This document shows, one piece after another, positions 1 to 46,524 of a stretch of DNA of 64,000 bases. Origin of the DNA: Rickettsiales bacterium (GTDB lineage Bacteria; Pseudomonadota; Alphaproteobacteria; Rs-D84); assembly GCA_031283185.1 (NCBI GenBank), contig JAITCH010000009.1, forward strand, positions 1,190-65,189, written 5' to 3'. Under the pieces are notes generated by a model. The model searched no databases and was not told where the DNA came from. It was given only the letters and a program-made list of their open reading frames with translations. Every line of letters starts with the position of its first letter. The first letter of the stretch is position 1. Position numbers and translations under genes: made by a program.

Positions 1-3000
1 TCCCATCGCCAGCGCAACGGAATCCGTCTTCGCATTGCACGCATTGCGTTCCGCCCGCCGATACATAGAATGGCGCGGGGCAAACCAGCCAAGTTGATTG
101 ACCCGGTGCGGATTGATAATTTGATCCGCTTGCCGCCGTGCAACCGGACGCGGTCGTTAAATTTGCGCCCGTTCCGATTGTTCCCGCCGGGCATTGTTTG
201 GGCGCAGTTAAATTCGCACCATCGCAATAATTACCCGCCCCGCAGTTGCGGCGTGTGCCGTCTCCGGGACAATAATATCCAACTCCGCAGTCCACAATCG
301 CGCCAGTTATGCCGTCAGTCCAATATCCGGGTGCGACTGCATTCGGCGCACACTGAGATTTCGCAGTTGAACCCGCCGCCGACCAAGTCCCCGCCGGACA
401 TACCGCACAATTCGCCGCCGAAGATGCCGTTGCAGATTCGCCATATCTTCCTGCCGGACATTGTTCGCGTGCCGTGCCGCCCGCGCAATAATACCCTGCC
501 CCGCAAGTTGTAATTTTGCCGTCCGCGCAGACATATCCTGCCGGGCAGTTGTCGGCGCAGTTCGCGCCCCATTTGCCCGCCGGACATTTGGCGCATTCAT
601 CCGCGCTCACCAAACCAATTGCGCCGTTATGATATGTTCCCACCGGGCAGGCGGTCGCAACGCTTGACCCTGCCGGGCAATATCCGCCCGAACACGGCAC
701 GCGATTCACACCCAAAGCGCACATATATCCTGCCGCGCAGACGGACTTTGTGCCATCAGTGCAGTGATTGCCGACTCCGCATTGTGTGGCATTACAGGCC
801 GCGGCATTTGCCGCACCTGCCAACGACCAAGTATTCGCCGGACAATAAGTTGATAATGCGGATCCGGCCGGACAATAATGACCTTCGGGACAATGGACGC
901 GCCGTCCGATGCCCGGGCAGTAATATCCGGCGGTGCAGGCATCCTTTGCAAAATTTTCGCACCAGTTGCCCGCTCCGCAAAGTTCCGCGGTGCAACTCGC
1001 CGCGCCGCTTGCGCCGGGCTCTGACCAAGTCCCCGCCGCGCAAGGTGTTGGCGCGCGCACATTTTCAGGGCAATACGCGCCAGCCGGACAAATTACAGAA
1101 AGTTCATCAACCGGGCAATACCGACCCGCGGCGCAAGGCGATTTTGATCCGCCAGCGCAAAGTTCCGTTTCGCCGCACAGCGCGACCTTGCAGTCGGATG
1201 CGGCGGAAGCATTTTTATAAGACCAGGTTCCGGCAGGACAGGTAGTCGCCGCATCGCTTCCCTCTGGGCAGTAATGACCTGCGGGGCAGTCGACGCGCGT
1301 GCCGTCCCCGGAACATACAAAGCCTGCGGGGCAAATTATTTTTGATCCGTCCGCGCACCAGTTGGCCTTGCCCGCCCATATTGGGTCGGCGTTGCATTCA
1401 AGGACGGAACAGGAACTTTCCCCTGCGATTGACCAGCGACCTTGGGGGCAGTTGCGCTGAACCGAAGACCCTGCCTCGCAGAATTTGCCTGCGGTGCAGT
1501 CGGCCAAAATTCCATTGCCAGCACAGAATTTTCCCGGCGAGCAAGTTTGGCGCACGCCGTTTCCGGGGCACCAGTTTCCGATTCCGCAGATTTCATTGGT
1601 GCACTCCGCCGCGCTTTTCGCGCCCTGTAATGACCAAGTGCCGACCGGGCAGTTTTCTTCGCCCTTACCGGTCTCGCAGAATTTACCCTCTGGACATTCG
1701 GTTTTTACGACCACATCATCCGCGCTTATAATGCAATAGAATCCTGCCGGGCATTCTTGTATTGCCGCATTTGTCCCCTCGCACCATTTGTTGTTCCCGC
1801 AAAGCGCACCAATGCAGTCGGCTTTTTTGACCGAGCCGATTGCCGACCAAGTTCCGTCTGGACAAGAAGTTTTCTTCGCTACGCCCGCCGCGCACCAACT
1901 GCCTGCTGGACAATCTATCTTTGTTCCATTGCCCGCGCAAAATGACCCGGCGGGGCATTCGGATTTAACGCCGTTTTCACACCAGTTGCCTGCGGCACAG
2001 ATTGCGGTTTTGCAGTCGGATGCGAGGGACGCGCCGGGCAAAGACCAAGTTCCGGCTTCGCAGACGGCGGGCGCGGATGATCCGGCCGGGCAGTAATATC
2101 CCGCCGGACATTCGGTAATTTTCCCATCTCCGGCGCAAATGCTGCCCGCGGGGCAAGGCCATTGCACTCCGTCCGCGCACCAGTTCCCTGCGGGACAAGC
2201 GGCGCAGTCTGATGCCTTGGTCGCGCCTGCGGCCTTTGCGGCGACCGCAAATCCGTCAAATGAAACGCTGCCAGCCGCAGACCAAGTTCCGACTGGGCAA
2301 GCGAATGAATCGCGCCCATCGCAATAATATCCTTCGGCGCATTCGCGGATGTTCGCGCCGCCATTCGGGCAAATAAAGCCGGGCGCACATTTGGTGCAGT
2401 CTTCGGATTTGCCGGGGCATTTGCCGGTTATGAAAACTTGATTGCGATATGTGTCGCCGTCTGCCAAGGCGGATACTTCACAGGTCGCGCCCGCCCAATG
2501 TCCAGCAGGACATACGACCTTGCCCACGCCATCCGGGCAGTAAAAGTTCCAACCTGCGTCCCCTTGGCGTTGTTCATTGCACGGACGGCAGACATTGTGG
2601 AAGGTTCGCGCGACAGAATTATCCGCAGGCTTTACATAATAGAATCCCGCGCCGCAGTTAATTATTTTCCCGTCTTCACAATAAGACTCTTCCGGGCAAA
2701 AATTCGGCGCGCAGTCGGATGCGGCGGACGCGCCATTCAAAGACCATTTTCCAACAGGGCAAAGGGTGGGCGCGGATGATCCAGCCGGACAATATGAACC
2801 TGCGGGGCATTCGGTCTTTTTTCCATCTCCGGCGCAAGTGAATCCGCTTGGGCATTGGGCGGCGCAAGCCATTCCCATAAATTCGCTGCGGCGCGGATTG
2901 TATCCCTTGGATTTCATAAACGCGTCCAGTGCGTCAATCAGTGTGTCTTTGGAAACCGACCAAGTCCCCGCCGGACAACTTTCAATACTGCCGGGATCGA

Positions 3001-3694
3001 AACAGAATGAACCTTCGGGACACATCATACATTCGGCGATGGATTGCGCTTTGTTGGTTTCGGTTAGCGTTCCCATCGGACAAGGCGCGCGGGCAGATCC
3101 GCCGATGCAGTAATAACCTTTGCCGCAAGGCGAGCAGGTGCCGTTGTCGAATCCGAATGAAACGCGATTGTATGTGCCGGGCTGACAGCACATTACAGGT
3201 GCGAAGTATAAATTCACATAGTCGTCCATTGATTTCACCGGGACTTTTTTGCCCCAGATTGTGGATGATATTTCGCGGGCGAGTTTCCACATCTCGTTCA
3301 AGTATTCCATATCTTGGGCGACGGTGTCGGTTTGGGGGATAGTGCTGTAAGAATCAAAGCGCGGCAGTTCGTCATTGAAATATGGCGAGCAAGATCCAAG
3401 CATAGCGATGTTGTGTGCATACCAAGAATCGGCGGGTGAAAGGCTGATTGGGATTCCCATATTTTGCGCGTGGCCGATTACGACATCGTAGAGTTTGTCC
3501 TTGGTGTCAGCGATTTTTTGGATTTCTGGTGCGATGTTTTGCGGGTCAAGCGCGGGGTATGACGAGACCGCGATACAGTTAGGTCCTTGGCAGAAAGGTC
3601 TACCTGAAATATCGACGGCTGCTGACGCGTTTAGGGTGCAAAAGCATAAGCCTATAAAGGCTTGAATTTTGATAAAATTCCAAGTCCGAAGCAA
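1..3694 (-). CDS. Very large secreted cysteine-rich repeat protein (GCC2_GCC3 / ephrin-receptor-like CPAGTWS / CPAGxYC repeats), 3' end beyond window
   Basis: Minus-strand frame is open from TTG at 3694 to position 1, which is why the ORF track (which needs a stop) does not list it. A GAGGAAGGA Shine-Dalgarno lies 7 nt upstream. The N-terminus reads LLRTWNFIKIQAFIGLCFCTLNASAAVD, a signal peptide with AXA cleavage. A unique domain of about 150 aa follows, then dozens of tandem CxxC...CPAG(T/S)WS / CPAGYYC units seen as the DNA repeat gaccaagtccccgccgg. All plus-strand ORFs here are shadows of this gene. Confidence 0.6.
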   Translation of the reverse strand, partial: MLRTWNFIKIQAFIGLCFCTLNASAAVDISGRPFCQGPNCIAVSSYPALDPQNIAPEIQKIADTKDKLYDVVIGHAQNMGIPISLSPADSWYAHNIAMLGSCSPYFNDELPRFDSYSTIPQTDTVAQDMEYLNEMWKLAREISSTIWGKKVPVKSMDDYVNLYFAPVMCCQPGTYNRVSFGFDNGTCSPCGKGYYCIGGSARAPCPMGTLTETNKAQSIAECMMCPEGSFCFDPGSIESCPAGTWSVSKDTLIDALDAFMKSKGYNPRRSEFMGMACAAQCPSGFTCAGDGKKTECPAGSYCPAGSSAPTLCPVGKWSLNGASAASDCAPNFCPEESYCEDGKIINCGAGFYYVKPADNSVARTFHNVCRPCNEQRQGDAGWNFYCPDGVGKVVCPAGHWAGATCEVSALADGDTYRNQVFITGKCPGKSEDCTKCAPGFICPNGGANIRECAEGYYCDGRDSFACPVGTWSAAGSVSFDGFAVAAKAAGATKASDCAACPAGNWCADGVQWPCPAGSICAGDGKITECPAGYYCPAGSSAPAVCEAGTWSLPGASLASDCKTAICAAGNWCENGVKSECPAGSFCAGNGTKIDCPAGSWCAAGVAKKTSCPDGTWSAIGSVKKADCIGALCGNNKWCEGTNAAIQECPAGFYCIISADDVVVKTECPEGKFCETGKGEENCPVGTWSLQGAKSAAECTNEICGIGNWCPGNGVRQTCSPGKFCAGNGILADCTAGKFCEAGSSVQRNCPQGRWSIAGESSCSVLECNADPIWAGKANWCADGSKIICPAGFVCSGDGTRVDCPAGHYCPEGSDAATTCPAGTWSYKNASAASDCKVALCGETELCAGGSKSPCAAGRYCPVDELSVICPAGAYCPENVRAPTPCAAGTWSEPGASGAASCTAELCGAGNWCENFAKDACTAGYYCPGIGRRVHCPEGHYCPAGSALSTYCPANTWSLAGAANAAACNATQCGVGNHCTDGTKSVCAAGYMCALGVNRVPCSGGYCPAGSSVATACPVGTYHNGAIGLVSADECAKCPAGKWGANCADNCPAGYVCADGKITTCGAGYYCAGGTAREQCPAGRYGESATASSAANCAVCPAGTWSAAGSTAKSQCAPNAVAPGYWTDGITGAIVDCGVGYYCPGDGTRRNCGAGNYCDGANLTAPKQCPAGTIGTGANLTTASGCTAASGSNYQSAPGQSTWLVCPAPFYVSAGGTQCVQCEDGFRCAGDG

Positions 3695-3875
3695 TTGATT
3701 TCCTTCCTCTGCCAACAAGTCTAGCAAATCAAACCAAGGTCAATCAAGTGAGTTTTATTGCCTAAATATTATTTTGAAACGTTATATGCAGAACTTAAAA
3801 ATTCAAATAATAAAATAATTTTGATTTGCTTTTACATACAGGACAATATAATATAAATATGGAGGAAAGCCAAAT

Positions 3876-4859
3876 ATGATGCGTTCCATAGAAATATGTG
3901 CAGGTGCTGGTGGTCAGGCTATTGGACTTGAACAAGCAGGTTTTTCACATACCGCACTTATAGAGATTGAAAAACTAGCATGCGATACCTTACGCACAAA
4001 TCGTCCAAATTGGAATATAATTGAAACAGATTTGCATAATTGGTCAGCCAAACAATATGAGGGTATTGACCTGTTCGCAGGTGGCATTCCATGTCCACCA
4101 TTTTCTGTCGCAGGAAAACAGTTAGGAAAAGATGACCCCCGGGATCTTTTTCCAACCGCATTACGGCTTATATCCGAATGCGATCCAAAGTCCATCTTGC
4201 TTGAAAATGTAAAAGGGCTTTTTAGTTCCAAATTTGACGAATATCGTGAACACATAAAATCACAACTAGAATCCATGGGGTATGTTTGCTTTTGGAATTT
4301 GATAAATTCCTGTAATTATGGTTTGCCTCAGTTGCGTCCGAGAACAATTCTAATCGCATTAAAAAAAGAATATGCTCAACATTTTAGATGGCCATTGGGC
4401 ATCATCGCCCCACCTCCAACCATAGGTGATTTATTAAAGGAAGAGCTCGCTTCCAATGGCTGGCTTGGCGCGGAAGAATGGGCAAAAAAGGCGGATTGGA
4501 TTGCCCCTACATTAGTCGGTGGAAGCAAAAAACATGGTGGTGCCGATCTAGGGCCAACTCGCGCCAAAGAAGCATGGGCAAAGCTTGGAATAGATGGTTG
4601 TGGGTTGGCGGATAAAGCGCCGGAAAAAAATTTTGTGGGAATACCACGGCTTACCATACAAATGGCGGCTTTGGTGCAAGGATTTCCGAAATGTTGGCAA
4701 TTTTCAGGCAAAAAAACACCTGCATACAGACAAATAGGCAACGCTTTTCCTCCACCCGTTGCAAAAGCAATGGGCAAAGCGATAATGAGGGCTTTGATAG
4801 CCGGAGAAGAAATAAAAGAAGGTGAAGAATATGGTAAAAAACTTAGGCTCGCGAGCTAA
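3876..4859 (+). CDS. DNA cytosine-5 methyltransferase (Dcm family)
   Basis: Motif I EICAGAGG, motif IV PCPPFS, motif VI ENVKGL, motif X QIGNAFPP. AT-rich context. Confidence 0.85.
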   Translation: MMRSIEICAGAGGQAIGLEQAGFSHTALIEIEKLACDTLRTNRPNWNIIETDLHNWSAKQYEGIDLFAGGIPCPPFSVAGKQLGKDDPRDLFPTALRLISECDPKSILLENVKGLFSSKFDEYREHIKSQLESMGYVCFWNLINSCNYGLPQLRPRTILIALKKEYAQHFRWPLGIIAPPPTIGDLLKEELASNGWLGAEEWAKKADWIAPTLVGGSKKHGGADLGPTRAKEAWAKLGIDGCGLADKAPEKNFVGIPRLTIQMAALVQGFPKCWQFSGKKTPAYRQIGNAFPPPVAKAMGKAIMRALIAGEEIKEGEEYGKKLRLAS

Positions 4860-5394
4860 ACTGCGTCAATATTTATTTGATAATATAGGAAAAGTGTTGT
4901 CTTCCAATGAACTGCGTGAAGTGGCTGGGACTTCAGAATGGGGGCAGCGTGTCCGTGAATTACGCGATGAAGAAGGTCTACAAATCTTAACACACAATGA
5001 CAGATCCACATTAAAACCCGGTCAATATATTTTGGAAACAGAGAAACCAAAACCTGCATTCGCTCGTGAAATCAGCAAAGAAACCCGCGCATATGTCTTG
5101 GATCGGAATGGCTTTACTTGTCAAATGTGCGGTGCTGTTGCCGGGGAGCCACACCCTTATGATACCACCAAGAAAACACGCCTTCATATTGGACACATAA
5201 TAGATAAAAGCATGGGTGGCACAGATGATTATTCTAATTTGCGCGCAATTTGTAGTATATGTAATGAAGGGGCATCAAATATCACACTTGAACGACCATC
5301 TTATGAAAAATTATTAATACAAATTCGTCGTGCCAATGGCGGAGATCAAAAGAAAATCTTAGAATGGCTAAAAAATAAGTTTCAAGATTTCTAA
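4822..5394 (+). CDS. HNH endonuclease (candidate restriction or nicking partner of the methyltransferase)
   Basis: CQMCG...HIGHIID...NLRAICSICN bba-Me/HNH signature. Overlaps the methyltransferase 3' end by 38 nt (translational coupling). Confidence 0.65.
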   Translation: MKNMVKNLGSRAKLRQYLFDNIGKVLSSNELREVAGTSEWGQRVRELRDEEGLQILTHNDRSTLKPGQYILETEKPKPAFAREISKETRAYVLDRNGFTCQMCGAVAGEPHPYDTTKKTRLHIGHIIDKSMGGTDDYSNLRAICSICNEGASNITLERPSYEKLLIQIRRANGGDQKKILEWLKNKFQDF

Positions 5395-5918: not shown

Positions 5919-6446
5919 CTAAATCTCTGAGTCTGGATTGATTTTAATGGCATAGCGGTTCAGAACATTGAAAAACTTCTGCTCGCTCTTTTCATCCCTA
6001 AATCCCATCAGCATATTTCCGTATTTTTCACGCGCCCGTTTAATGCGCCACTCCGCCAATCGCTTTATCCCGAATTTATAATCTTTGACCTTATAAACAT
6101 CCACGATTTTGGATAAGTCTTCCAAATGGAATGTAATTTTATTTATAACTTTCACAGGCGCGTTATTGCGATAATGGCATTCGTTATCTTCGCCGCAGAA
6201 ATACCAGTTGTCATTGTTTTCCAGTTCATAAACTTCGCCGTTGATTTCCGAAGAAAAAACATAAAGCGGCCTATGCCCAAAGGTATCTATTAGGGCGACT
6301 TTGGGCAAAGTCCTGGCCTTAATATACATTGGCTGTCGAATTTTAATCGAAGCATTAACATCTTCGTGCGTCTTAAATTGCGGGATGAGTTCATCGCCGA
6401 CTTCCAACTTTTCTTGCGTTCCGTGAAAAAATCTTAAATTTTCCAT
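5919..6446 (-). CDS. Hypothetical protein (island cargo)
   Basis: 175 aa ORF convergent with the island genes. AT-rich codon usage. R...SS...ExE-like residue order noted but unproven. Confidence 0.4.
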   Translation of the reverse strand: MENLRFFHGTQEKLEVGDELIPQFKTHEDVNASIKIRQPMYIKARTLPKVALIDTFGHRPLYVFSSEINGEVYELENNDNWYFCGEDNECHYRNNAPVKVINKITFHLEDLSKIVDVYKVKDYKFGIKRLAEWRIKRAREKYGNMLMGFRDEKSEQKFFNVLNRYAIKINPDSEI

Positions 6447-6488: not shown

Positions 6489-7478
6489 TTATCTTGTTTT
6501 CGCCAAATACCATTTGATTGTTTTGACGATCCCGGTATCAAAATTTTCTTTTGCGCGCCAGCTCAATTCCTTTTCCAACTTGGTCGCATCAATCGCGTAT
6601 CTGCGGTCGTGTCCTAATCTATCCGCGACAAATGAAATCTGATTTTTATATGAAACGCCATCCGCTCGCGGCTGTTCCCTATCTAGAAGTCCGCATATAG
6701 TATTCACAATCTGCAAATTATTCCGCTCATTTCGTCCGCCGACATTATAAACCTCGCCAGCAACTCCGTTATGATAAATCAAGTCAATCGCCTTGCAGTG
6801 GTCGGCGACATAAAGCCAGTCGCGCACATTTTTCCCATCGCCATAAATCGGAATTGGTTCGCCCGCCAACGCCTTGCGGATTATGGTTGGGATTAGTTTC
6901 TCCGCGTGTTGTTTCGGTCCATAATTATTGGAACAATTTGAAGTCGTTATATTCATTCCATATGTATGGAATGCGGCGCGAACTATGTGGTCGCTTGCGG
7001 CCTTAGATGCGGAATAAGGGCTGTTCGGTGCGTATGGCGTGGCTTCGGTGAAAAGTCCAGTTTCCCCCAAAGATCCATAAACTTCATCAGTTGATATATG
7101 ATGGAATCGCGGCGTTTTATCTTCGCCCCAGTGCGCCCTCGCGGCCTCTATTAAATTCGCTGTTCCGATGACATTGGTTTCATAAAATCCCAGCGGCGTT
7201 TTAATGGATCTATCAACATGACTTTCTGCTGCGAAGTGAATCACCCCTTGAATATTATAATGTTCAAAGTGGGTTTGAAGCATCCCAAAATGGCAAATGT
7301 CGCCCAACACGAATTGATAATTTGGAACGCCGTCCATTTCGGCGAGATTGCTTTTATCGCTGCCCTGCACCATAGAATCCAAACAAATGATTTTGTATTT
7401 CGGATGTTTTTTTGCGAAGTAAGGAATGAAGTTAGAACCGATAAATCCCGCGCCGCCGGTTATAAGAATTGGTTTCAT
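6489..7478 (-). CDS. rmlB: dTDP-glucose 4,6-dehydratase
   Basis: ILITGGAGFIGSNF Rossmann motif and the YxxxK catalytic region. ATG at 7478 overlaps the rmlD stop (ATGA); the track ORF extends to 7499. Confidence 0.9.
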   Translation of the reverse strand: MKPILITGGAGFIGSNFIPYFAKKHPKYKIICLDSMVQGSDKSNLAEMDGVPNYQFVLGDICHFGMLQTHFEHYNIQGVIHFAAESHVDRSIKTPLGFYETNVIGTANLIEAARAHWGEDKTPRFHHISTDEVYGSLGETGLFTEATPYAPNSPYSASKAASDHIVRAAFHTYGMNITTSNCSNNYGPKQHAEKLIPTIIRKALAGEPIPIYGDGKNVRDWLYVADHCKAIDLIYHNGVAGEVYNVGGRNERNNLQIVNTICGLLDREQPRADGVSYKNQISFVADRLGHDRRYAIDATKLEKELSWRAKENFDTGIVKTIKWYLAKTR

Positions 7479-8305
7479 CGCACTAACTCCTTTATGCATT
7501 CTTTAAGGCTGACGCGCCATTCTGGAATTTCTATGCCTAGGGTCTTTATGATTTTGGATTTGTCCAGGACGGAGTATTCCGGGCGTTTTGCCTTGGTCGG
7601 ATATTGGGCGGTGGTTATGGGATTGACATTGCAGTTCAGTCCAGATAATTTCATAATGTTTTTTGCAAATTCATACCAACTTACATAGCCTTCGTTTGTG
7701 TAGTGAAAGATCTCCTTGAACCCGCCATTGACCATTGGCGCGATTTTAAGAATTACATCAGACAGGTCGCGTGCATTTGTCGGCGTTCCGTGCTGATCGT
7801 AGACAACATTTATTTCATCTTTTTGCGAACCGAGTTTCAGCATTGTCTTAACAAAGTTATTTCCATAAGGACTGTAAAGCCAAGCCGTCCGAATGATCGC
7901 GGCGGATTCGGCATTTTCCATCACGGCAAGTTCACCCGCAAGTTTTGTCGCGCCATATACGGATTGCGGATTGCAGTTTGATGTTTCCGAATATAGAGAA
8001 TTTGCAAGCCCGTCGAATACATAATCTGTGGAAAGGTGAATGATGTTCCGTCCGTATTTTGCAAGATTACCCGCGCCGATATGGTTGACGGCGTTGGCGA
8101 TTTCTGGTTCGTCTTCGGCCTTGTCGACTGCGGTGTAAGCGGCGCAGTTGACGACGCAGTCATATTTGTCGGACTTGAAAAAATCCGCGACTGCTTTTTC
8201 GTTTGTTATGTCCAGTTCGTCCATATCAACATAGCGGGCTGTGTCGCCCAAAATGTCTTCCAAACAAGTTCCAAGTTGTCCGCGTGCACCTGTGATTAAA
8301 AGCAT
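7475..8305 (-). CDS. rmlD: dTDP-4-dehydrorhamnose reductase
   Basis: MLLITGARGQLG..., typical RmlD length and motifs. Confidence 0.85.
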   Translation of the reverse strand: MLLITGARGQLGTCLEDILGDTARYVDMDELDITNEKAVADFFKSDKYDCVVNCAAYTAVDKAEDEPEIANAVNHIGAGNLAKYGRNIIHLSTDYVFDGLANSLYSETSNCNPQSVYGATKLAGELAVMENAESAAIIRTAWLYSPYGNNFVKTMLKLGSQKDEINVVYDQHGTPTNARDLSDVILKIAPMVNGGFKEIFHYTNEGYVSWYEFAKNIMKLSGLNCNVNPITTAQYPTKAKRPEYSVLDKSKIIKTLGIEIPEWRVSLKECIKELVR

Positions 8306-8844
8306 CTTCCTAACTCCTTTAATAATGGATGGCGTTTGTCTTTTTCAGATAGAATTTCTTCGCCGGCCGGGATTTGCCAGTCAATGCCCAAAGCGGGATC
8401 GTTGTAAATCAAGCCGCCGTCAGCGGAAGGATCGTAAAAGTTGTCGCACTTGTATGCGAAGACTGCGGACGCGGAAAGGACGGCGAATCCGTGCGCGAAC
8501 CCGCGCGGAATCATCAACATACAATTATTTTCACCAGTTAGTTTTGCGGATATGTGCCGTCCGTATGTTGGAGATCCGGGGCGGAGGTCAACCGCAACAT
8601 CCAGGACAGAGCCTTCCAAACAGCGCACAAGTTTTGCCTGGGCGGACGCGCCGCGTTGAAAATGCAAACCGCGGATTGTGCCGTAATAGGATTGCGATTG
8701 GTTGTCTTGGACAAAGTTGTATTTCAAGCCTGCGTTTTCAAATGTTTTTTGATTGTATGTTTCGACGAAGTATCCGCGGACATCTGCGAAGACGCGCGGC
8801 TTTATCAAGATTACACCATCTATTTTAGTTGGTTCAAATTGCAT
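8296..8844 (-). CDS. rmlC: dTDP-4-dehydrorhamnose 3,5-epimerase
   Basis: 182 aa cupin. FVQDNQS...RGLHFQ motif. Confidence 0.85.
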   Translation of the reverse strand: MQFEPTKIDGVILIKPRVFADVRGYFVETYNQKTFENAGLKYNFVQDNQSQSYYGTIRGLHFQRGASAQAKLVRCLEGSVLDVAVDLRPGSPTYGRHISAKLTGENNCMLMIPRGFAHGFAVLSASAVFAYKCDNFYDPSADGGLIYNDPALGIDWQIPAGEEILSEKDKRHPLLKELGRCF

Positions 8845-9718
8845 TTTGATGATCCTTTAATACTTTGCGGAGATAGTCGGCGTATCCGCCGCGCTTGAAC
8901 TTTGCGATTTGCAATTCCATTCCGCATTCGTTGATGAATCCTTTTTCAAGAGCGATTTCTTCGGGACAGGATATTTTTATTCCGCGGGTTTCTTCAATCG
9001 CGCCTATAAAATTTGATGCCAGCATCAGACTTTTTTCCGTGCCTGCGTCAAGCCAAGTCGCGCCATATCCCAAATCCATAGTTTTTAAGCGACCTTCGGC
9101 GAGATATAAATTTGACAGGTCGGTTATTTCATATTCTCCGCGTGCGGATTTTTTAACCTTTTTTGCATATTGTGCGACATCGCCTGGATAACAATAAAGT
9201 CCGATTGCGGCGAAATTTGATTTTGGTTTTGCGGGCTTTTCTTCAATAGAAATTACATTTTTTTGTTTATCAAATTCCACGATACCAAATCGTTGCGGGT
9301 CGCTGACCTTGTATGTAAAAATGGTTGCATGGTTTGGGGTTGCTGAGAGTTTTTTTCCAGTATCGCTAAGGTATCCTGTATGAATTATATTGTCGCCCAA
9401 AATCATTGCAGTCTGTTCGCCGTTTATAAAGTCTTCACCAATAACGAATGCTTGGGCGATACCTTCGGGTTCTGGTTGCTGTGCATATTCAATATGGATA
9501 CCCCATTGCGATCCATCGTGAAGAAGATCGCGGAACATTGGGATGTCGCGCGGAGTTGAAATCAGTAATATATCGCGGATACCGAACATCATTAATGTTG
9601 ATAAAGGGTAATAGATCATCGGCTTGTCATAGACCGGCAGCATCTGTTTAGAGATGGAAAATGTCATAGGGTGAAGACGCGTGTTTAGGCCACCGGCAAG
9701 AATTATGCCCTTATTCAT
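8834..9718 (-). CDS. rmlA: Glucose-1-phosphate thymidylyltransferase
   Basis: MNKGIILAGGLNTRLHPMT... G-x-G-T-R-L signature. Confidence 0.9.
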   Translation of the reverse strand: MNKGIILAGGLNTRLHPMTFSISKQMLPVYDKPMIYYPLSTLMMFGIRDILLISTPRDIPMFRDLLHDGSQWGIHIEYAQQPEPEGIAQAFVIGEDFINGEQTAMILGDNIIHTGYLSDTGKKLSATPNHATIFTYKVSDPQRFGIVEFDKQKNVISIEEKPAKPKSNFAAIGLYCYPGDVAQYAKKVKKSARGEYEITDLSNLYLAEGRLKTMDLGYGATWLDAGTEKSLMLASNFIGAIEETRGIKISCPEEIALEKGFINECGMELQIAKFKRGGYADYLRKVLKDHQNAI

Positions 9719-9796
9719 TTTTACCTCGTATTTGATTCTTATCAGGATTTTACAACAAAGAATTAATTTGTCAACAGGTAATTTCGCAAATTAATT

Positions 9797-10615
9797 CTAA
9801 AACATATCAATGTGTGGACGCGAGCCATCAATTAAATAAGCGGCGGGCTGATTTGCATCCCAATCAATGCCAGTCTTTTTTACTGACGCGGGATTGCCAG
9901 CAATAAGGCAATTTGGCTCTATAAATTTTTTCGTAACTACTGAACGCACTGGAACGATGCAATGATCCGGAATGCCTGCCTTGGCAGTAAGAATCACATC
10001 GTGCCCGATCCATACATGGTTTCCAACGGATACGGGTTCTGTCGGCACATTAATGCATTCCCTAGTTTTTGCATCCAATACTGCGTGTCCATCGCAAAGT
10101 ATAAATACTTGCGCCAACATTAAATCATTTCCGATTTTTATTTGATTTCCACAGGACAGGACATTAAGTTTCGAGCCTGCTCCATTTTCCCCTACGATAA
10201 AACGATTGTTATCATAGAAAAGATCCAAATGCGCGTATTTCATATGAAAGTTTCTGCCTAATTCCACATAGTTATTGCAACCGCCATAATTGAACTTAAC
10301 ATTTATATTTCCGTGGCAGGGAAGATGAATGACTATTTTATTGTTTTTGTAAATGCTTCTATCTTTGGTATAGACATTATCAAAACCTACATTCAAAGAA
10401 AAGTTTCGGACTAATTCGCGGTATTTTTTCGATAGAACCATCGCCGGCGACATTATAAATTCGTGCGAATTACCCGACTCGTCAATTATTATAACAACAT
10501 TATCATTGTTGTGGGGGGGGGCGGACAATTGACCTCTAAGACTTCTCCGCATGCGTTTTGATGGAATGAACAGACACACTAATTTAATAAAGGTTTTGCG
10601 TTTGATTCTAAACAT
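9797..10615 (-). CDS. Sugar O-acetyltransferase (left-handed beta-helix, hexapeptide repeats) with 5' poly-C tract
   Basis: C-terminal hexapeptide-repeat region (VWIGHDVILTAKAGIPDHCIV...). A C9 tract encodes APPH at codons 31-34. Confidence 0.7.
   Translation of the reverse strand: MFRIKRKTFIKLVCLFIPSKRMRRSLRGQLSAPPHNNDNVVIIIDESGNSHEFIMSPAMVLSKKYRELVRNFSLNVGFDNVYTKDRSIYKNNKIVIHLPCHGNINVKFNYGGCNNYVELGRNFHMKYAHLDLFYDNNRFIVGENGAGSKLNVLSCGNQIKIGNDLMLAQVFILCDGHAVLDAKTRECINVPTEPVSVGNHVWIGHDVILTAKAGIPDHCIVPVRSVVTKKFIEPNCLIAGNPASVKKTGIDWDANQPAAYLIDGSRPHIDMF
10513..10521. repeat. Homopolymeric G9 (C9 on coding strand) inside the acetyltransferase CDS
   Basis: gtgggggggggcgg read directly. In-frame at this length. 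Confidence 0.9.
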
Positions 10616-10623
10616 TTGCAGTC

Positions 10624-11760
10624 CTATTCGATTTCACAATTCAAAGTCAATTCATGGACTGGGAACCAACCATAATTTGAATCCGTAAGGCTAAATTTAT
10701 ACCCCAAACCAAGCGAATCAATCATTGGCAGAATGTGCATCAGGTCATCATAATTATGATAAATGCTTAAAATTAATGTCGGTTTTTGTTCGCGTATAGT
10801 TTGCAGCGCACCTTTAAGGAAAAGTTGTTCTGCCCCTTCAATATCGACCTTTATCAAACCAACCTTGATTTTGTTTTCTTTAACATAATTATCCAAAGTT
10901 TCCATCTTGCATTTCAATTGTCCCGGCGCATCGAACGCCGCGCAATCCATATAACCCGTGCTGTCCGAAAAACCGACATTAATTGGAACAATGTTTTTTG
11001 CATTATTAAGCGCAATGTTGCGTTTCATTTCTTCAAAATTTCCCGTCAATACTTCCGCTGCATAAATTGGATTATTAGAGAAATGTCTAGCGAATATAAG
11101 TGCAGAATCCCCAACATAAGCCCCCACATCAAAAATCGCAAGACCTTCTTTTATAATTCTATCTTTTGACTTTAATCCATCCAATCCGTATTCATCAACA
11201 AATATGGATGGCTCAAAAGTATTTTTATATAGCTTATATCCATTCAATTCAAAATATTTTCCATTCATATCAGTCGCTTTCATGGAATGCATTTTTTCAA
11301 ACTTCTTTATTTGTGTTTCATCATAAAAAATACACCACGGCGCGCAATTTGGTTTTTGATTTATCGGACGAGCTCCATTAACAAGCAAATTATTCGCCTT
11401 AACTAATCTGTAAAGATTGCAGTCAAAAATTTCTTTGCTTTGTTTATCCAATCCATTCAACATAGTTTTAGCGTCCGAATCAAATTGTTGTTGAGATATG
11501 CCAAGCAAACTTGGTAAAAATCCGAAACTAACAAAGTTGATCTTGCCTGCTGCATCATATAGTTCAGGCGATATGCTGGCATATTGTATTTTCACAACAA
11601 TAGAGAGAGGGGGGGGGGTGAATTTGCGCTTGATTATCCGTATACCGAACAAATATGTCCGCGAAACAGAATTGCTGCGTTTTTTGCTTAAAATTGGCAG
11701 ACCGAAAAAGAAGTATTTTTTATCGCCATTTGGGTATCTTTTTTTGCCTAAAACTTTCAT
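10624..11760 (-). CDS. FkbM-family methyltransferase (glycan modification) with internal poly-C tract
   Basis: C-terminal FkbM domain (FDVGAYVGDSA...IKVDIEGAE). The N-terminal part contains a C10 tract encoding TPPP. Confidence 0.65.
   Translation of the reverse strand: MKVLGKKRYPNGDKKYFFFGLPILSKKRSNSVSRTYLFGIRIIKRKFTPPPLSIVVKIQYASISPELYDAAGKINFVSFGFLPSLLGISQQQFDSDAKTMLNGLDKQSKEIFDCNLYRLVKANNLLVNGARPINQKPNCAPWCIFYDETQIKKFEKMHSMKATDMNGKYFELNGYKLYKNTFEPSIFVDEYGLDGLKSKDRIIKEGLAIFDVGAYVGDSALIFARHFSNNPIYAAEVLTGNFEEMKRNIALNNAKNIVPINVGFSDSTGYMDCAAFDAPGQLKCKMETLDNYVKENKIKVGLIKVDIEGAEQLFLKGALQTIREQKPTLILSIYHNYDDLMHILPMIDSLGLGYKFSLTDSNYGWFPVHELTLNCEIE
11609..11618. repeat. Homopolymeric G10 (C10 on coding strand) inside the FkbM methyltransferase CDS
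   Basis: gagagaggggggggggtg read directly. ORF is open at this length. Confidence 0.9.
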
Positions 11761-12792
11761 TTACAAAGTTCCCTTTTTCGCGCGGGCCAGGTCGGCATCC
11801 ATCATCATTTTCGCCAGTTCGGCGAATTTGACTTTTGGCGACCAGCCTAATATATCCTTGCCCTTGGCTGAATTGCCCAGCAGTTGTTCAACTTCGGCGG
11901 GACGATAAAATTTAGGATTGACCTTGACGACGACGCGCCCGGAATTTTTATCTGTTCCGATTTCGTTTTCGGCTTCGCCGCTGAATTCAATGTCCCACCC
12001 CAGTGCCTTGCCGGCTTCGGATATAAATTCGCGGATGGAATGCATTTCATTTGTAGAAATGACATAAGTATCGCCGTGTTCGTGTTGCAGCATCCGCCAC
12101 ATAAATTCAACATAGTCGCCTGCGAATCCCCAATCGCGTTTTGCGTTCAGGTTGCCCAATTCAACAGGTTTGTCCGTTTCGCCGACGGCGATGCGTGCGA
12201 AATGCTGGGTAATTTTGCGCGTAACGAATTCCTTGCCGCGGAAAGGGGATTCGTGATTGAATAGAATGCCTGAACAGGTGAAAACGCCAAAACTCTCGCG
12301 GTAATTGGTTGCCGCCCAGTGCGCCATAAGTTTTGCCACGCCATAGGGCGAACGCGGCCAAAATGGAGTTTTTTCAGTCTGCGGCACTTCTTGCACCTTG
12401 CCGAACATTTCGGATGTGGACGCTTGATAAAACCGGGTCTTCGGACTGAACTGGCGAATGGCTTCCAAGATATAAAGAACGCCCATACCATCGGCTTGGG
12501 CGGTATAAATTGGTTCTTCAAACGAAGCGGCGACAAATGATTGCGCGGCCAAGTTATAAAATTCATCCGGCTGATATTTTATAAGCAAACGGCAAATGTT
12601 GGTAAATTCAAGCAGGTCAAAATCCACCATTTCGATTTGGTCAAGTATTCCGTGTTCTTTAAGTTTTTCGAATGTATCGGTCGCGCCACGGCGGAATGCG
12701 CCGATGACCTTGTAGCCCTTGGACAGAAGAAGTTTTGCAAGGTATCCTCCATCTTGACCTGTTATCCCAGAAATGATTGCTGTTTTCGCCAT
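11761..12792 (-). CDS. gmd: GDP-mannose 4,6-dehydratase
   Basis: MAKTAIISGITGQDGGYLAKLLL... Start trimmed to the internal ATG (track ORF begins at 12858). Confidence 0.85.
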   Translation of the reverse strand: MAKTAIISGITGQDGGYLAKLLLSKGYKVIGAFRRGATDTFEKLKEHGILDQIEMVDFDLLEFTNICRLLIKYQPDEFYNLAAQSFVAASFEEPIYTAQADGMGVLYILEAIRQFSPKTRFYQASTSEMFGKVQEVPQTEKTPFWPRSPYGVAKLMAHWAATNYRESFGVFTCSGILFNHESPFRGKEFVTRKITQHFARIAVGETDKPVELGNLNAKRDWGFAGDYVEFMWRMLQHEHGDTYVISTNEMHSIREFISEAGKALGWDIEFSGEAENEIGTDKNSGRVVVKVNPKFYRPAEVEQLLGNSAKGKDILGWSPKVKFAELAKMMMDADLARAKKGTL

Positions 12793-12899
12793 ATTTATCC
12801 TCATATCTAAAAATGCTTTATTATTACATAATTTTAATTTAATAACGCACAAAGTCAATCACTTTATAGAGAAATCCGTGAATAGATCATTCATCACGC

Positions 12900-13739
12900 T
12901 TAAAACGCATATTGTTTTGACTTAAATCGTTCCAGCGCATCGTCTAAATTCTCTTGATCATCGTCCCAATATAATCCCCAATCGATCAGGGTTAACTTGC
13001 CATAGCCCGCATCCATCAACGGATCGGTAGGTAGATCCGAAGAAATCCAACGCCCCTGTCCAGAATTCGGCGTGCCGTATTTCTGTAAAACCATTTGCCA
13101 GAATGCGAGAACTTTTTTATCGCGCTGATTGGTGAATTTTTCAGCATCGCCTGGAATGTCGTCCACATCATTGGTGTAGATTATTTTCCAAACAAGATTA
13201 TCGGTTGCATTTGATGTAAAATGCACACTGATTTTTTCACCAGTTGACGGGCGTTCCAGCCGCATTTCCGAAGGGTATAAAAATCCCCGTTTGCGCGCGG
13301 CGGAATTGATGCACTTTTCCAATTGCGCGGGCGCATTGATTTTTTGTTGCCTGCATTCATAGTCCAGGTTGGACTTCCATTCTTTTGGTATGGTGTATGT
13401 TATAGCATTGCGGGTAGCGGGGCGATAAATGGCGGCCTCGCGGAAGAACAGAATACGAACGGATTCGAACGGCATACCCAGCATTATGCTGGAAATATCA
13501 AAGTCGTGAACATTGGCAAAGGATTCGCCGGCGTTAAGTGCGAGGGTTTCACCCAGCATTTCAAAGTCGATATTTTCGGATGATGAAGTAATATCTCCTT
13601 CAAGGTATTCGCCGCCTGCATCTGCGCCAATGTCGAAGCCGCTGTCGAAAAATTCATCTTCTGCCCGCGACAGAAATGGCACGATGCATAAGGCGAATAT
13701 GATTATAAAAATTTTCCTACTCTTCCACATAATTTTCAT
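12900..13739 (-). CDS. Secreted hypothetical protein
   Basis: Signal peptide MKIMWKSRKIFIIIFALCIVPFLSRA. The track ORF is extended upstream through a palindromic repeat array, so the start is trimmed to the signal-peptide Met. Confidence 0.5.
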   Translation of the reverse strand: MKIMWKSRKIFIIIFALCIVPFLSRAEDEFFDSGFDIGADAGGEYLEGDITSSSENIDFEMLGETLALNAGESFANVHDFDISSIMLGMPFESVRILFFREAAIYRPATRNAITYTIPKEWKSNLDYECRQQKINAPAQLEKCINSAARKRGFLYPSEMRLERPSTGEKISVHFTSNATDNLVWKIIYTNDVDDIPGDAEKFTNQRDKKVLAFWQMVLQKYGTPNSGQGRWISSDLPTDPLMDAGYGKLTLIDWGLYWDDDQENLDDALERFKSKQYAF

Positions 13740-13772
13740 TCTAGTAAATATCTTACCCCTTACGCAAACGAA

Positions 13773-14070
13773 AAATTCCCCCTCTGCTTGATGTGGTCGC
13801 ACAATAGTCCCCTTCGCTGGCGAAGGGGTGGATGCCGAAGGCAGACGGGGTAGTGGTAATAATTGCCTCGCCCGGCTTTGCCGGGAGAGGAACGAAGCCC
13901 GGCAACTTGTTGCCGTAGGCTGAGTGGTGAGGGCAAGCGCAAAAGCCCTCACCGGATTTTCTAAATTCGCCTTGCTCATTAATAAAATCCTCCTCTCCCA
14001 CCTTCGGCGGGCAAGGCTATTATTAACACCCACCCCCATACCCCACCTCATCCTCCACACCCCCACCCCA
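13773..14070. repeat. Array of nested palindromic (RPE/REP-like) elements
   Basis: Units such as gtccccttcgctggcgaaggggtg...cggggtagtggt and gcctcgcccggctttgccgggagagg, shared with more than 20 other loci in the window. Confidence 0.8.
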
Positions 14071-14117
14071 AACGCATTTTATCTTGACAAAATCAGTATT
14101 AGGGGTTAGAATGCAGT

Positions 14118-15008
14118 ATGATTATCCCGAAAACCGCCTTAAAACATATATATATTCAAGCCGCCTGGTGGCTCGCTTGGGCGATTTTCTGCACAATTTT
14201 CCTAGGAATTGCCTTCAAATTCAACATATTTTCCGCCCGCCATTGGGCAATCGTTAGCAAATATGGATTTCACGGATTTCGCGGCACGGCATTATTAATC
14301 AGCATTGCCGCCGCCCTGCCGGTTGGCGCGGCACTCGCCGTTTTGTTCTGGCGGCAAGGTGGTTTCAAAAAGCCTCCGAAAAAGCCCGAAACCCCTGCAA
14401 ACGCGCATTCGGACTTTGCAGAAATTGCTGAAATCATAGAGACAAAAAAGGATCTGCCGGAAGAACTTCGTAATGCTTATGTCCGAATGAGGCGCGATGC
14501 ACATCCTGCGAAAAACCAGATGCCCGCGCCGATGCAGCAGAAATCAAAACCGAAAGCCGATGATTTGTTTGCGATGGACGATTTTGACCCTGCGCCAAAT
14601 GCCGCGCCCAACAACGCGCCCGCGCCGAACACCCAGGCTCCGACCTTTGAGAGCCTAGATTTCAAGCCGCTTGAATTCGGCAAAAACAAAAAAGATAAAG
14701 ACGAAGGGGAATCCAAACTTTTCCTGCGCGAGACGAATGACACGATCCGCATTATTGCGAAACACGATGATGAAGGGTCTTGGTTTGCGGATGAAAAGGA
14801 GCAACCCGGGCAAACTCCGCAGTGGTTTTCCGAAGGCGGGCAAAAGACTTCGCCGGTGTATTTGGCATTGCAAAAGGCGGCGGATTTGCGCGCGACCAAC
14901 CCGGATAAGAAAGTAGTTGCTGTTCTAAAATTGTATAAAGATAATATAATTAATAAGGCAGCTATGCTGCCGATCTGGACCGAACTGGGCATTGTTGTAG
15001 AAGATTAA
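14118..15008 (+). CDS. Membrane protein with proline-rich disordered linker
   Basis: Two N-terminal TM helices, then a PKKPETPANA...APNNAPAPN low-complexity segment. Confidence 0.5.
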   Translation: MIIPKTALKHIYIQAAWWLAWAIFCTIFLGIAFKFNIFSARHWAIVSKYGFHGFRGTALLISIAAALPVGAALAVLFWRQGGFKKPPKKPETPANAHSDFAEIAEIIETKKDLPEELRNAYVRMRRDAHPAKNQMPAPMQQKSKPKADDLFAMDDFDPAPNAAPNNAPAPNTQAPTFESLDFKPLEFGKNKKDKDEGESKLFLRETNDTIRIIAKHDDEGSWFADEKEQPGQTPQWFSEGGQKTSPVYLALQKAADLRATNPDKKVVAVLKLYKDNIINKAAMLPIWTELGIVVED

Positions 15009-15041
15009 TCATAGCAAATGATAATACTCAGTCCGGCGACG

Positions 15042-15941
15042 CTATAAAACACTTGCCCATTTCTTTTTGAACACAATGCTATTTTTTTTGCATCGCTCAC
15101 TAAGATATTTAGTAATGGACAGATTTTCAAAATGAATGATTTCCGATTTCGGCTGCAATACAACCCTCAACCCCTTTTCTTCCCGAACCCGGAATGCCAA
15201 ATCCGTATCTTCAAAATATGATGGGGCAAATGTCTCGTCAAATCCGTCCAATTCGCGCCACAACTTTCTGGAAATCATAATTGATGCGCCACAAACATAC
15301 GCAACATCCTTGCCATCAGTGCAATCCGAATGTTGGCGTGCAAGTTTATCATTGACGCGTTTAAGCATTTTTCCTGATCTTCCAGATGATTTAATTATCT
15401 TACCATCAATATCAATGCATTCCGAGCCCACAAGACCAATAGTGGAATTCCCATCCAAAGTTTTAACCAAAGATTCCAACCAATTCTGGCAAACAATCGT
15501 ATCATTATTAAGAAGGGCTATATATTTGCCTTTTGCCTTTTTCGCCGCGTTATTACAATTTTTCAGAAAGCGCAGATTCTTCTTATTCCGAACATGAACG
15601 ATATTTTTTATGCGCTGTTTGACATTCTTAGTTTCGTCAGTGCTGCAATCGTCTGCTAGGATTACCTCGTAACTCGCGCCCTTTACATTTTTTAGAACTG
15701 AATGAATGCAAGCGTGCGTAAATTCATACTGATTATATGCCGGGATAATTATAGAAACCAGCGGATTGGCTGTTTTCGGAAGCGCGAAATTCTGCGGAAC
15801 ATTTTTTTGGAACTTTGCCATCCATTTCGCCTGGATGCCGACATCTCCATTATTGGACTCAAATCGTTTATGAACGCGAATGCCGAACACATAATAGCGC
15901 ACACATAGCCCCCTTCTCCGCTGGCTGAAAAATATGGACAT
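15042..15941 (-). CDS. Glycosyltransferase family 2
   Basis: VSIIIPAYNQYEFTHACIHSVL...VILADDCSTDET, a DxD-type GT-A fold. The true start may be an internal Met near 15821. Confidence 0.75.
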   Translation of the reverse strand: MSIFFSQRRRGLCVRYYVFGIRVHKRFESNNGDVGIQAKWMAKFQKNVPQNFALPKTANPLVSIIIPAYNQYEFTHACIHSVLKNVKGASYEVILADDCSTDETKNVKQRIKNIVHVRNKKNLRFLKNCNNAAKKAKGKYIALLNNDTIVCQNWLESLVKTLDGNSTIGLVGSECIDIDGKIIKSSGRSGKMLKRVNDKLARQHSDCTDGKDVAYVCGASIMISRKLWRELDGFDETFAPSYFEDTDLAFRVREEKGLRVVLQPKSEIIHFENLSITKYLSERCKKNSIVFKKKWASVL

Positions 15942-15942
15942 C

Positions 15943-16494
15943 TTAAACCTTTTTCCTAAACTTCGTTATATCAATTATATTATCTGGGGTGTGGGGCAAG
16001 GGCGTTTCGCTGCCGCCTTCTAATGGCAATGGCTGATCCGCAGCCGCTTCGTCATTCGCACTTTCATTCGGAACAAAGCCCAGAACAAAATTCACACTCG
16101 GATCTTTGAACTCTATCAATGAATCAAACGGCACAATTATATAAAACGGCTGGCCGTTAAACGCCAAACTTACCCCAAAGTCCGTATCCGAAACATTCAG
16201 ATTCGCAAACGAATGCTGCATAACAATCGTCATCGTATCAGGATAACGCGTCCGAAGAAAGTCCGGAATCTTGACGCCGCGGAAACCAGTCTTGAAAGTA
16301 ATATAAAAATGCGTATTATCCCCTAAGCCATTTTCGCGGACATAGTTTAATGCCTCGCGCACAACATAGATTTTGGAACGCTCGATTATTTCTTCATAAT
16401 TTACTTTATTTCCCATATGACGAGTATAGAAACTTTCGCCATACTTTTGCAAGAACAAAAACCCAGCGACAAAGCCGACAGATGGTTTTGCCAT
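15943..16494 (-). CDS. sspB: ClpXP adaptor SspB-like protein
   Basis: 183 aa. IPDFLRTRYPDTMTIVMQHSFANLNV...LAFNGQPFYIIVPFDSLIEFKDP resembles the SspB fold, with an acidic C-terminal tail. Confidence 0.5.
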   Translation of the reverse strand: MAKPSVGFVAGFLFLQKYGESFYTRHMGNKVNYEEIIERSKIYVVREALNYVRENGLGDNTHFYITFKTGFRGVKIPDFLRTRYPDTMTIVMQHSFANLNVSDTDFGVSLAFNGQPFYIIVPFDSLIEFKDPSVNFVLGFVPNESANDEAAADQPLPLEGGSETPLPHTPDNIIDITKFRKKV

Positions 16495-43953: not shown

Positions 43954-43974
43954 TACATCCGCCAATTCTATCTC

Positions 43975-44095
43975 TCTAAATTCCCCTTCGCTGGCGAAGG
44001 GGTGTCCGCCTTCGGCGGACGGGGTAGTGGAATTCCCCGCCAAGGGTGGCGGGGTGTCCGGCGTAGCCGGACGGGGTGGTTCGCTACAATTACTC
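43975..44095. repeat. Palindromic elements
   Basis: aattccccttcgctggcgaaggggtgtccgccttcggcggacggggtagtgg; aattccccgccaagggtggcggggtgtccggcgtagccggacggggtggttcg. Confidence 0.8.
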
Positions 44096-44112
44096 GCCAG
44101 GATTTTTTGTCA

Positions 44113-46252: not shown

Positions 46253-46324
46253 TTTGTATAGTTCTCCCTACTTTGAGCAAGGGTAGCAATTTTGGAACAC
46301 CTAACGCAAGCATAAAAATACGGC

Positions 46325-46510
46325 TAAAAATTCCCCACTTTTCTTTTGTCATTCCCGCGCAGGCCGGGATATTTGTAATAAGTCATTGCCCGACTTGATC
46401 GGGCAATCTCGGCAAAAAATTCCCCTCCAAGGCTTGTCGCGCCGTAGCGAAGCGCAGGCGGATGGAGGGGTGTCGCGCCGTAGCGAAGCGCAGGCGGACG
46501 GGGTGGTTAG
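46325..46510. repeat. Palindromic element array
   Basis: tgtcattcccgcgcaggccgggat; gtcattgcccgacttgatcgggcaatc; aattcccctccaaggcttgtcgcgccgtagcgaagcgcaggcgga (two copies)...ggggtggtt. Confidence 0.8.
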
Positions 46511-46524
46511 AAAATTTTCTCACC

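Follow-up and report, generated by a model that had tools for sequence, protein, structure and literature searches.

A giant cysteine-hairpin protein of the ephrin-receptor-like class with a lineage-restricted helical head, encoded by a gut-associated alphaproteobacterium

The stretch of DNA analysed here, 64,000 nt of contig JAITCH010000009.1 from a metagenome-assembled genome (MAG) labelled Rickettsiales bacterium, is referred to below as the window. At its left end, on the minus strand, lies the 5′ part of a gene for a giant cysteine-rich repeat protein. The gene is genuine, chromosomal and from a gut-associated alphaproteobacterium, and the repeats of the encoded protein belong, at the superfamily and fold level, to the ephrin-receptor-like/GCC2_GCC3, TNFR-like class, with the units in the window representing a divergent variant that Pfam does not recognize. 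A signal peptide followed by a helical head and a rod of Cys hairpins characterizes a very small bacterial family, of which this is one member. The protein has already been deposited as MDR2685465.1, but as an unannotated hypothetical protein, and the fold class is also known. As to function, we lean towards a giant exported structural protein that acts as a surface fibre or adhesin-like stalk.

Between positions 3694 and 1 (minus strand) the reading frame contains 1,231 sense codons and no stop codon, and is still open where it reaches the edge of the window at base 1. This agrees with a first reading of the window made without database searches (the sequence-only reading), which had noted at least 1,230 open minus-strand codons running off the window. 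The start codon is a TTG (3694-3692), identical to the start codon in the NCBI record, and an in-frame TGA is found 5′ of it at 3742-3740. A Shine-Dalgarno-like sequence, GAGGAAGG (3702..3709, minus strand), read from the sequence and presumably functional, is located 7 nt upstream of the TTG. The protein (P0001) is 100 % identical to MDR2685465.1 (LBB23_01675, 'hypothetical protein, partial', 1,627 aa), the gene for which is on a 194,574 bp contig of the MAG, and the open frame at 1..3694 is therefore a partial coding sequence that covers aa 1-1231 out of at least 1,627. The gene runs on for 396 residues past the window and then ends at the contig end. The C-terminus was not recovered either in a database search with the off-window tail or in two metagenome scans, and the two loci returned were chance matches. 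There are 26 ORFs (open reading frames) of at least 60 aa that overlap the gene in other frames, and these are the spurious ORFs that the sequence-only reading had expected. No tandem repeat was detected in the gene at the DNA level, indicating that the array is old and diverged and not an assembly artefact.

The N-terminus of the protein, MLRTWNFIKIQAFIGLCFCTLNASA followed by AVD, has a basic n-region, a hydrophobic core and an A-x-A site, and, as read by eye, would form a Sec-type signal peptide (aa 1-25; 3620..3694, minus strand) with predicted cleavage after NASA. Equivalent N-termini are present in the homologs P0002, P0003 and P0123. Residues 26-168 (143 aa; 3191..3619, minus strand) are non-repetitive and make up the head domain, and the array begins at a CC doublet (residues 169-170). 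The first part of the array, aa 169-496 (2207..3190, minus strand), consists of irregular Cys-hairpin modules, with hairpins modelled at pLDDT (predicted local distance difference test) values above 90, and includes a helical insert at approximately aa 249-276 (helices at model residues 224-251) that was found in MDR2685465.1 alone among the paralogs. It is followed by eight regular super-units of ~66 aa (aa 497-1033; 596..2206, minus strand), defined by Cys spacing, a period of 66, the structural model and a fold match to the protein Mst1 (see below). Each contains 8 Cys in the pattern C-x4-C-x2-GNWC...CPAGxxC...CPAGxYCPAGS...CPxGTWS. Further, less regular Cys-hairpin modules (aa 1034-1231; 2..595, minus strand) continue off-window as canonical PF07699 units. 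Overall, the in-window protein contains 122 Cys in 1,231 aa (9.9 %) and 39 CxxGx[W/Y/F] motifs, the latter from residue 169 on. The base period of the array is 15-16 aa, and a super-period of 66 aa, with a Cys spacing of 16-5-6-8-6-9-6-10, is dominant. Hence, the signal peptide, unique domain of about 150 aa and near-continuous Cys repeat array described in the sequence-only reading were all recovered. Besides the signal peptide, the known 1,627 aa include no membrane-spanning segment.

Assignment of the repeats to a family depends on which part of the protein is compared. The Pfam gathering threshold for PF07699 (Ephrin_rec_like, formerly GCC2_GCC3) is 23.1 bits. The whole in-window protein had no Pfam match at E≤1, and pieces of it reached only 14.8 bits against PF07699. 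The pieces also gave sub-threshold matches to TNFR_ELAPOR1_6th (PF23091; 17.9 bits vs a cut-off of 33.2), Lustrin_cystein (22.8 vs 27 bits), Furin-like_2 and Dickkopf_N. TNFR_c6 was not matched in Pfam, and the Giardia VSP family was absent among the Pfam matches at E≤10. However, the off-window residues 1232-1627 pass the PF07699 threshold (28.4 bits, E 1.4e-6, four stretches), and the whole protein therefore qualifies for PF07699 when the window part alone does not. Two distant family members, P0127 and P0128, also pass (about 34 bits). Thus, of the kinship put forward in the sequence-only reading, the ephrin-receptor-like/GCC2_GCC3 part is borne out by the tail and by the database matches, Mst1 and fold evidence given below, but the part of the protein in the window falls short of PF07699 and there was no match of the Giardia VSP type. 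The Myxococcus cysteine-rich repeat, a Cys-rich repeat of bacterial secreted proteins, had been named as a purely bacterial alternative. Neither it nor any other NCBIfam family was matched at E≤10 by the whole protein or by four repeat pieces. The label PF27023 ('6BHPP') appears in precomputed tables for P0001, P0003, P0051, P0107 and several bacterial PF07699 proteins, but was faint where marked and was not confirmed.

A database search (E≤1e-5) returned ~490 proteins beyond four close relatives, sharing 25-29 % identity over 75-86 % of the query, in a ranking that is inflated by array length. Among the matches listed, most carry PF07699 and every one with a named source is eukaryotic, including hemichordate, mollusc and fish MEGF6-like proteins, a Toxoplasma 'GCC2 and GCC3' protein, and proteins from Phytophthora, Stylonychia and Intoshia. 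Where checked, the gene contexts of the eukaryote-type matches looked eukaryotic or giant-virus-like. A hidden Markov model of the 66-residue unit scored 30-48 bits, full-length, against the eukaryotic arrays and 64-81 bits within the bacterial family. The eukaryotic arrays have base periods of 16-18 and higher-order periods of 33, 36, 54, 66, 72 and 78, which overlap those of the bacterial protein.

The structural comparisons point in the same direction. Four units modelled with AlphaFold (pLDDT 90.1) are composed entirely of short β-hairpins. Searched against the PDB with Foldseek, the model matched Mst1 of Chlamydomonas reinhardtii (PDB 8tx1, 8wa2, 9b4h) best (E 2e-8, probability 1.0), with ELAPOR1 and TNFRs next (E 3e-3 to 0.2; 0.05-0.2 for the TNFRs) and, weakly, the Eph ectodomains of EphA4 and EphB2 (E 0.2-0.3). 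In a sequence-profile search of the PDB, Mst1, which is an Ephrin_rec_like protein, was the sole match (E 5e-8). A viral fold search gave no significant match.

The MAG that contains the MDR2685465.1 gene also encodes a complete paralog, P0003 (1,407 aa), and orthologs of P0003 (P0002 and P0004/P0123) were found in three runs of one sequencing project and in Joint Genome Institute (JGI) metagenomes. The paralog and ortholog genes sit inside bacterial contigs in four independent assemblies. All five proteins are colinear from the signal peptide through ~1,250 residues, with 35-38 % identity, and this corroborates the reading frame, for which interruption by stop codons had been considered in the sequence-only reading. 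In the repeat region, Cys is invariant at 106 of 121 positions, compared to 102 of 820 for residues other than Cys or Gly. Together, the colinear homologs and invariant Cys go well past anything that chance would produce, and indicate that the array is old, positionally stable and strongly selected for its disulfide scaffold. P0002-P0004 have an additional non-repeat C-terminal domain of ~150 residues. An HTH_3/Xre-type regulator is encoded divergently upstream of P0002, P0003, P0004 and a pilin-like protein, P0131, described below (from the gene neighbourhoods, HTH_3 genes at L001 2629-3090, L002 9432-9848, L092 89-505 and L086 6613-6855), which suggests dedicated regulation. A rubrerythrin gene is downstream of P0002 and P0003 in the contigs that extend there. 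For the MDR2685465.1 gene, a restriction-modification pair stands where the paralogs have HTH_3.

In the AlphaFold model, the head (aa 26-168) forms four helices (pLDDT about 85) that abut the first hairpins. Neither Pfam and NCBIfam nor the sequences and folds of the PDB provided a match to it. An exhaustive HMMER search with a head profile built from four sequences found only seven matches among 1.84 billion representative proteins (P0001, P0003, P0126-P0130). Two are from the MDR2685465.1 MAG, four others have a recognizable head, and the seventh is marginal and lies at the hairpin end of the profile. Of the four proteins from elsewhere with a head, three are of sufficient length to reveal the layout, and all three combine a signal peptide with Cys-rich repeats behind the head. 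Alignments revealed conserved head motifs, ...LYxxN..ML.ACS.YY... and ...LEYL...M...A..I.GG..G..LP...Y.DYV.IF....CC, with the hairpin modules directly after. When 185,579 species-representative genomes and JGI metagenome contigs were scanned with the head patterns, no further member was found.

Outside this family, the module is mostly but not exclusively eukaryotic. A search with the off-window tail led to lipoproteins of Gemmatimonadaceae (P0133, P0136 and P0137, the last encoded at L087 7001-8701) that score 65-127 bits for PF07699 and are encoded in ordinary bacterial neighbourhoods. In these, a lipobox and a β-rich N-domain precede 6-8 PF07699 repeats, which score strongly but contain little Cys, and the C-terminal end is helical and FIMAH-like. 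A second type, P0131 (560 aa; L086 7001-8683), is encoded on a 221 kb MAG contig (BRZ_AG) from a gut alphaproteobacterium of the same broad lineage as the source of the window. P0131 begins with a type IV prepilin methylation motif (23.5 bits vs a cut-off of 21.2), which is followed by Cys repeats of the Ephrin_rec_like type (21 bits, just under the cut-off) and a long Gly-rich C-terminus, and it is 40 % identical to residues 1472-1627 of P0001. A pilin or pseudopilin with an Ephrin_rec_like-type module appears to be undescribed so far, and nothing relevant was found in the literature on bacterial GCC2/GCC3 proteins. Against the window unit model, P0131 scored in the same range as the long eukaryotic arrays (~30-48 bits), whereas the Gemmatimonadaceae proteins scored 5-12 bits. 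As the window repeats are nearer to the eukaryotic arrays and P0131 than to the Gemmatimonadaceae proteins, an ancient inter-domain transfer is possible. However, no donor lineage stands out. A donor co-resident with the bacteria was considered and rejected, as the best eukaryote-type matches come from samples unrelated to those of the bacterial family.

The composition of the gene was also examined. The local GC content is 58 %, and was rejected as a sign of horizontal gene transfer since it is an effect of composition at codon position 2 (GC 0.645 vs 0.40), caused by the richness in Ala, Gly, Pro and Cys. At third codon positions, the GC content (GC3) of 0.555 is within one standard deviation of that in 32 neighbouring genes (0.475±0.081), and synonymous codon preferences are similar. 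The gene therefore carries no compositional trace of recent transfer. The remainder of the window is a typical Gram-negative chromosome, with rml, msbA, OmpA-like protein, RNase E/G, virB, clpB and parE genes.

ParE was used to place the source organism. It is 83-84 % identical to ParE from two 'Rickettsiales bacterium' MAGs (isolates Coa324 and Cyl330) and 72-75 % identical to ParE from three more MAGs with this label, from MAGs Nt197P3 and Lab288P3, which are higher-termite gut sample codes (PMC7024585), and from dozens of Candidatus Enterousia and other alphaproteobacterial MAGs. The Candidatus Enterousia and alphaproteobacterial relatives are from chicken, horse, ruminant and other gut samples. 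Of the 80 ParE-related genomes kept, five bear the Rickettsiales label and two are labelled Muribaculaceae. Judged from these sequence relationships, the organism is a member of a gut-associated alphaproteobacterial lineage, and the NCBI label 'Rickettsiales bacterium' looks loose. The ParE relatives provided no evidence for a classical intracellular rickettsia.

If the protein is a surface fibre, as we are inclined to believe, the following sequence of events can be envisaged. The Sec signal would bring the chain to the periplasm, where the Dsb system would oxidize it, forming ~80 disulfides in the known protein, ~58 of them in the window part. The disulfides would staple the β-hairpin modules of the TNFR/Ephrin_rec_like type into a stiff, protease-resistant rod, comparable to the ladder in Mst1. 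If the ~11 Å disulfide spacing of Mst1 (PMC10602792) applies, such a rod would measure tens of nanometres. The surface would be reached by a route that tolerates folded substrates, with type II-like secretion the obvious candidate, and the N-terminal four-helix head on the rod would be the likeliest specificity or binding element. In the resulting surface or extracellular fibre, the Cys/Gly scaffold would be constrained and exposed residues would be free to vary. We infer export beyond the inner membrane, the surface location, the rigidity and the binding role of the head. In a related gut alphaproteobacterium, repeats of this type are joined to the N-terminus of a type IV prepilin, which fits with extracellular display of the module in this lineage. 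The lineage evidently has pilin-type machinery, although no sign of it was seen in the window.

Several points weigh against the surface-fibre reading. The Sec signal peptide was assigned by eye judgement, and the C-terminus of MDR2685465.1 is lost to the contig end. The known sequence revealed neither an anchor nor a secretion signal nor a route across the outer membrane. In particular, an autotransporter β-barrel, a two-partner secretion (TPS) domain and RTX repeats were all absent from the 1,627 known residues, which are cut by the contig end at the C-terminus, and from the complete paralogs. The C-terminal domain of P0002-P0004 has no detectable relatives, the database search with it being uninformative as it missed even the parent proteins. 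No Dsb, type II secretion or pilus machinery is encoded in the 64 kb window. The similarity to Mst1 is local (TM-score 0.25-0.54 on the query), with 17-19 % identity.

The sequence-only reading had gone further and viewed the protein as a host-mimicking adhesin or effector. Combined with horizontal gene transfer from a eukaryote, and with the protein engaging host receptors or ligands, this is an explanation that we regard as unlikely. It draws on the predominantly eukaryotic distribution of PF07699 and on the best matches outside the five-member family, which are long PF07699 arrays, eukaryotic wherever the source is named (animals, apicomplexans, oomycetes and ciliates), as well as on the higher scores of the window unit against eukaryotic arrays than against the Gemmatimonadaceae proteins. 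The genome is also from animal guts and includes virB8, virB9 and virB10. However, the match ranking favours long arrays, the best eukaryote-type matches are from unrelated samples and do not single out a donor, GC3 and codon usage are native, and the array is old and position-conserved across the paralogs. The head has no eukaryotic counterpart, bona fide bacterial PF07699 proteins exist, among them the pilin-like P0131 in the same gut lineage, and the relatives of the source organism are gut-lumen Alphaproteobacteria. A specific host-ligand-binding module, such as the Eph ligand-binding domain, was not found. A role as an effector of type IV secretion (VirB/Rvh) is also unlikely, because a Sec signal and ~60 disulfides would be incompatible with delivery by this route into the reducing cytosol of a host cell. 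The paired spacing of 120 Cys implies that they are oxidized in the periplasm.

Retention in the cell envelope, either as a periplasmic or outer-membrane-associated scaffold or spacer or as a thiol/redox or metal buffer, appears improbable. The Sec signal in a protein with no recognizable outer-membrane secretion or anchoring domain, the lack of dedicated secretion genes adjacent to the gene, and the extreme Cys content are all consistent with it. Set against this, a rod of more than 1,400 residues, at tens of nanometres if extended, would far exceed the width of the periplasm, and the regular pairing pattern together with the modelled hairpin fold points to structural disulfides, not free thiols. 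The same module is found in a pilin-like protein in the lineage, and all of the structurally characterized relatives found are extracellular.

Eukaryotic contamination of the MAG or a chimeric or mis-assembled repeat, which could be suspected from the position of the gene at a contig end, the difficulty of assembling repeats and the eukaryotic origin of the closest long matches, is barely credible. The gene shares one uninterrupted stretch of sequence, the window, with 60 kb of bacterial genes. It starts with TTG behind a bacterial ribosome-binding site, encodes a signal peptide and lacks introns, and it has native codon usage and no DNA-level repeats able to cause collapse. Its paralogs and orthologs are interior to bacterial contigs in four independent assemblies.

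The surface-fibre reading can be extended to new, rigid, mastigoneme-like bacterial hairs, tens of nm long, that would attach the cells to gut protists, to host cuticle or epithelium, or to fibre particles. In this extended form, a small clade of gut Alphaproteobacteria would have acquired the module by an ancient inter-domain transfer (in either direction) and would use it in several display formats, head-and-rod and pilin-fused, with the head as a ligand-binding tip. We offer this as a speculation with rather long odds.

Immediately upstream of the giant gene, and transcribed divergently from it, is the type II restriction-modification pair, comprising a DNA cytosine-5 methyltransferase (327 aa) that overlaps an HNH endonuclease (190 aa) (3876-5394, plus strand; PADLOC MTase_II and REase_II). 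With a GC3 of 0.31-0.32, compared to the window mean of 0.475, and a local GC content of 39 %, this pair is probably a recently acquired island. An ORF of 175 aa (5919-6446, minus strand) falls just short of the threshold for rifampin ADP-ribosyltransferase (Arr-ms, 24.1 bits vs 25). A surface-glycan cluster (6489-16000, mostly minus strand) adjoins the giant gene, and includes rmlB, rmlD, a probable rmlC, rmlA, and genes for an FkbM-family methyltransferase, GDP-mannose 4,6-dehydratase (gmd) and family-2 glycosyltransferases, with msbA beyond it at 17470-19314. Further along, a 613 aa ORF (25755-27596, plus strand) had no match in Pfam, NCBIfam or PADLOC.

The type IV secretion block is made up of genes for an unusually long VirB10 (854 aa; 41479-44043), a VirB9/CagX protein with a C-terminal SPOR domain (44113-45654) and a VirB8-like protein (45611-46252), all on the minus strand. 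Beside it (virB block 41479-49739) is an 811 aa ORF (47304-49739, minus strand) that matches no family and has the lowest GC3 in the window (0.298). ClpB (54924-57020; 698 aa) matches its model only from position 149 on, and the N-terminal domain is absent. On the opposite strand at 54265-54702 is a lipoprotein-like ORF that is rich in Lys, Glu and Ala and has an LAAGC lipobox. As this ORF occupies the space upstream of clpB, the truncation is genuine and not due to a frameshift. No Rfam family was found at threshold anywhere in the 64 kb.

Long Ephrin_rec_like arrays have been treated as a hallmark of eukaryotic extracellular proteins, and here they account for most of the length of giant exported proteins from poorly known gut alphaproteobacteria. 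If the surface-fibre reading is true, the proteins would represent an adhesin or filament architecture unlike that of the usual β-helix, immunoglobulin (Ig)-like or RTX giants, and a single chain carrying ~80 disulfides would put oxidative folding in the periplasm to an extreme test. The Gemmatimonadaceae PF07699 proteins and the absence of any compositional sign of transfer also caution that a 'eukaryote-like domain' need not mean host mimicry. What is new is the bacterial family, with its nearly unique head and an 8-Cys super-unit of 66 residues that Pfam misses, together with the use of the module in more than one display format by a lineage of gut Alphaproteobacteria.

Among known systems, the Giardia VSPs, with their C-terminal transmembrane segment and CRGKA tail, are not close, as no VSP profile was matched and there is no such segment in the known 1,627 aa. 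TNFRs and ELAPOR1 contain the same class of small disulfide-stapled hairpin modules, and matches to them were below every threshold. However, the number of modules is 3-6 in TNFRs, which bind trimeric ligands, as against dozens, arranged in a rod, in MDR2685465.1. Mst1 is the best profile and fold match among solved structures. Disulfides ~11 Å apart form a ladder in its Cys-rich tandem, which has been linked to the robustness of the extracellular filament and likened by the authors to the Cys-rich domain of Eph receptors (PMC10602792). Mst1 differs in having nine Ig-like domains, a polyproline-II helix, heavy glycosylation and polymerization, none of which is evident in MDR2685465.1. The eukaryotic PF07699 arrays, such as the MEGF6-like proteins and the Toxoplasma 'GCC2 and GCC3 domain-containing protein', share the CPxG[TS][WY]S hairpin motif, a base period of 15-18 aa, super-periods of 33-78 aa (66 in some animals and ciliates), a Cys content of ~10 % and long uninterrupted arrays. 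MDR2685465.1 is distinguished from them by its own 8-Cys, 66 aa super-unit with a GNWC element, which is below the Pfam cut-off in the window, and by a bacterial signal peptide and head in place of EGF, kinase, transmembrane or other metazoan partner domains. The Gemmatimonadaceae lipoproteins and P0131 are likewise bacterial exported proteins with Ephrin_rec_like repeats, but they are much shorter (560-670 aa) and have other N-termini, and the Gemmatimonadaceae units contain fewer Cys.

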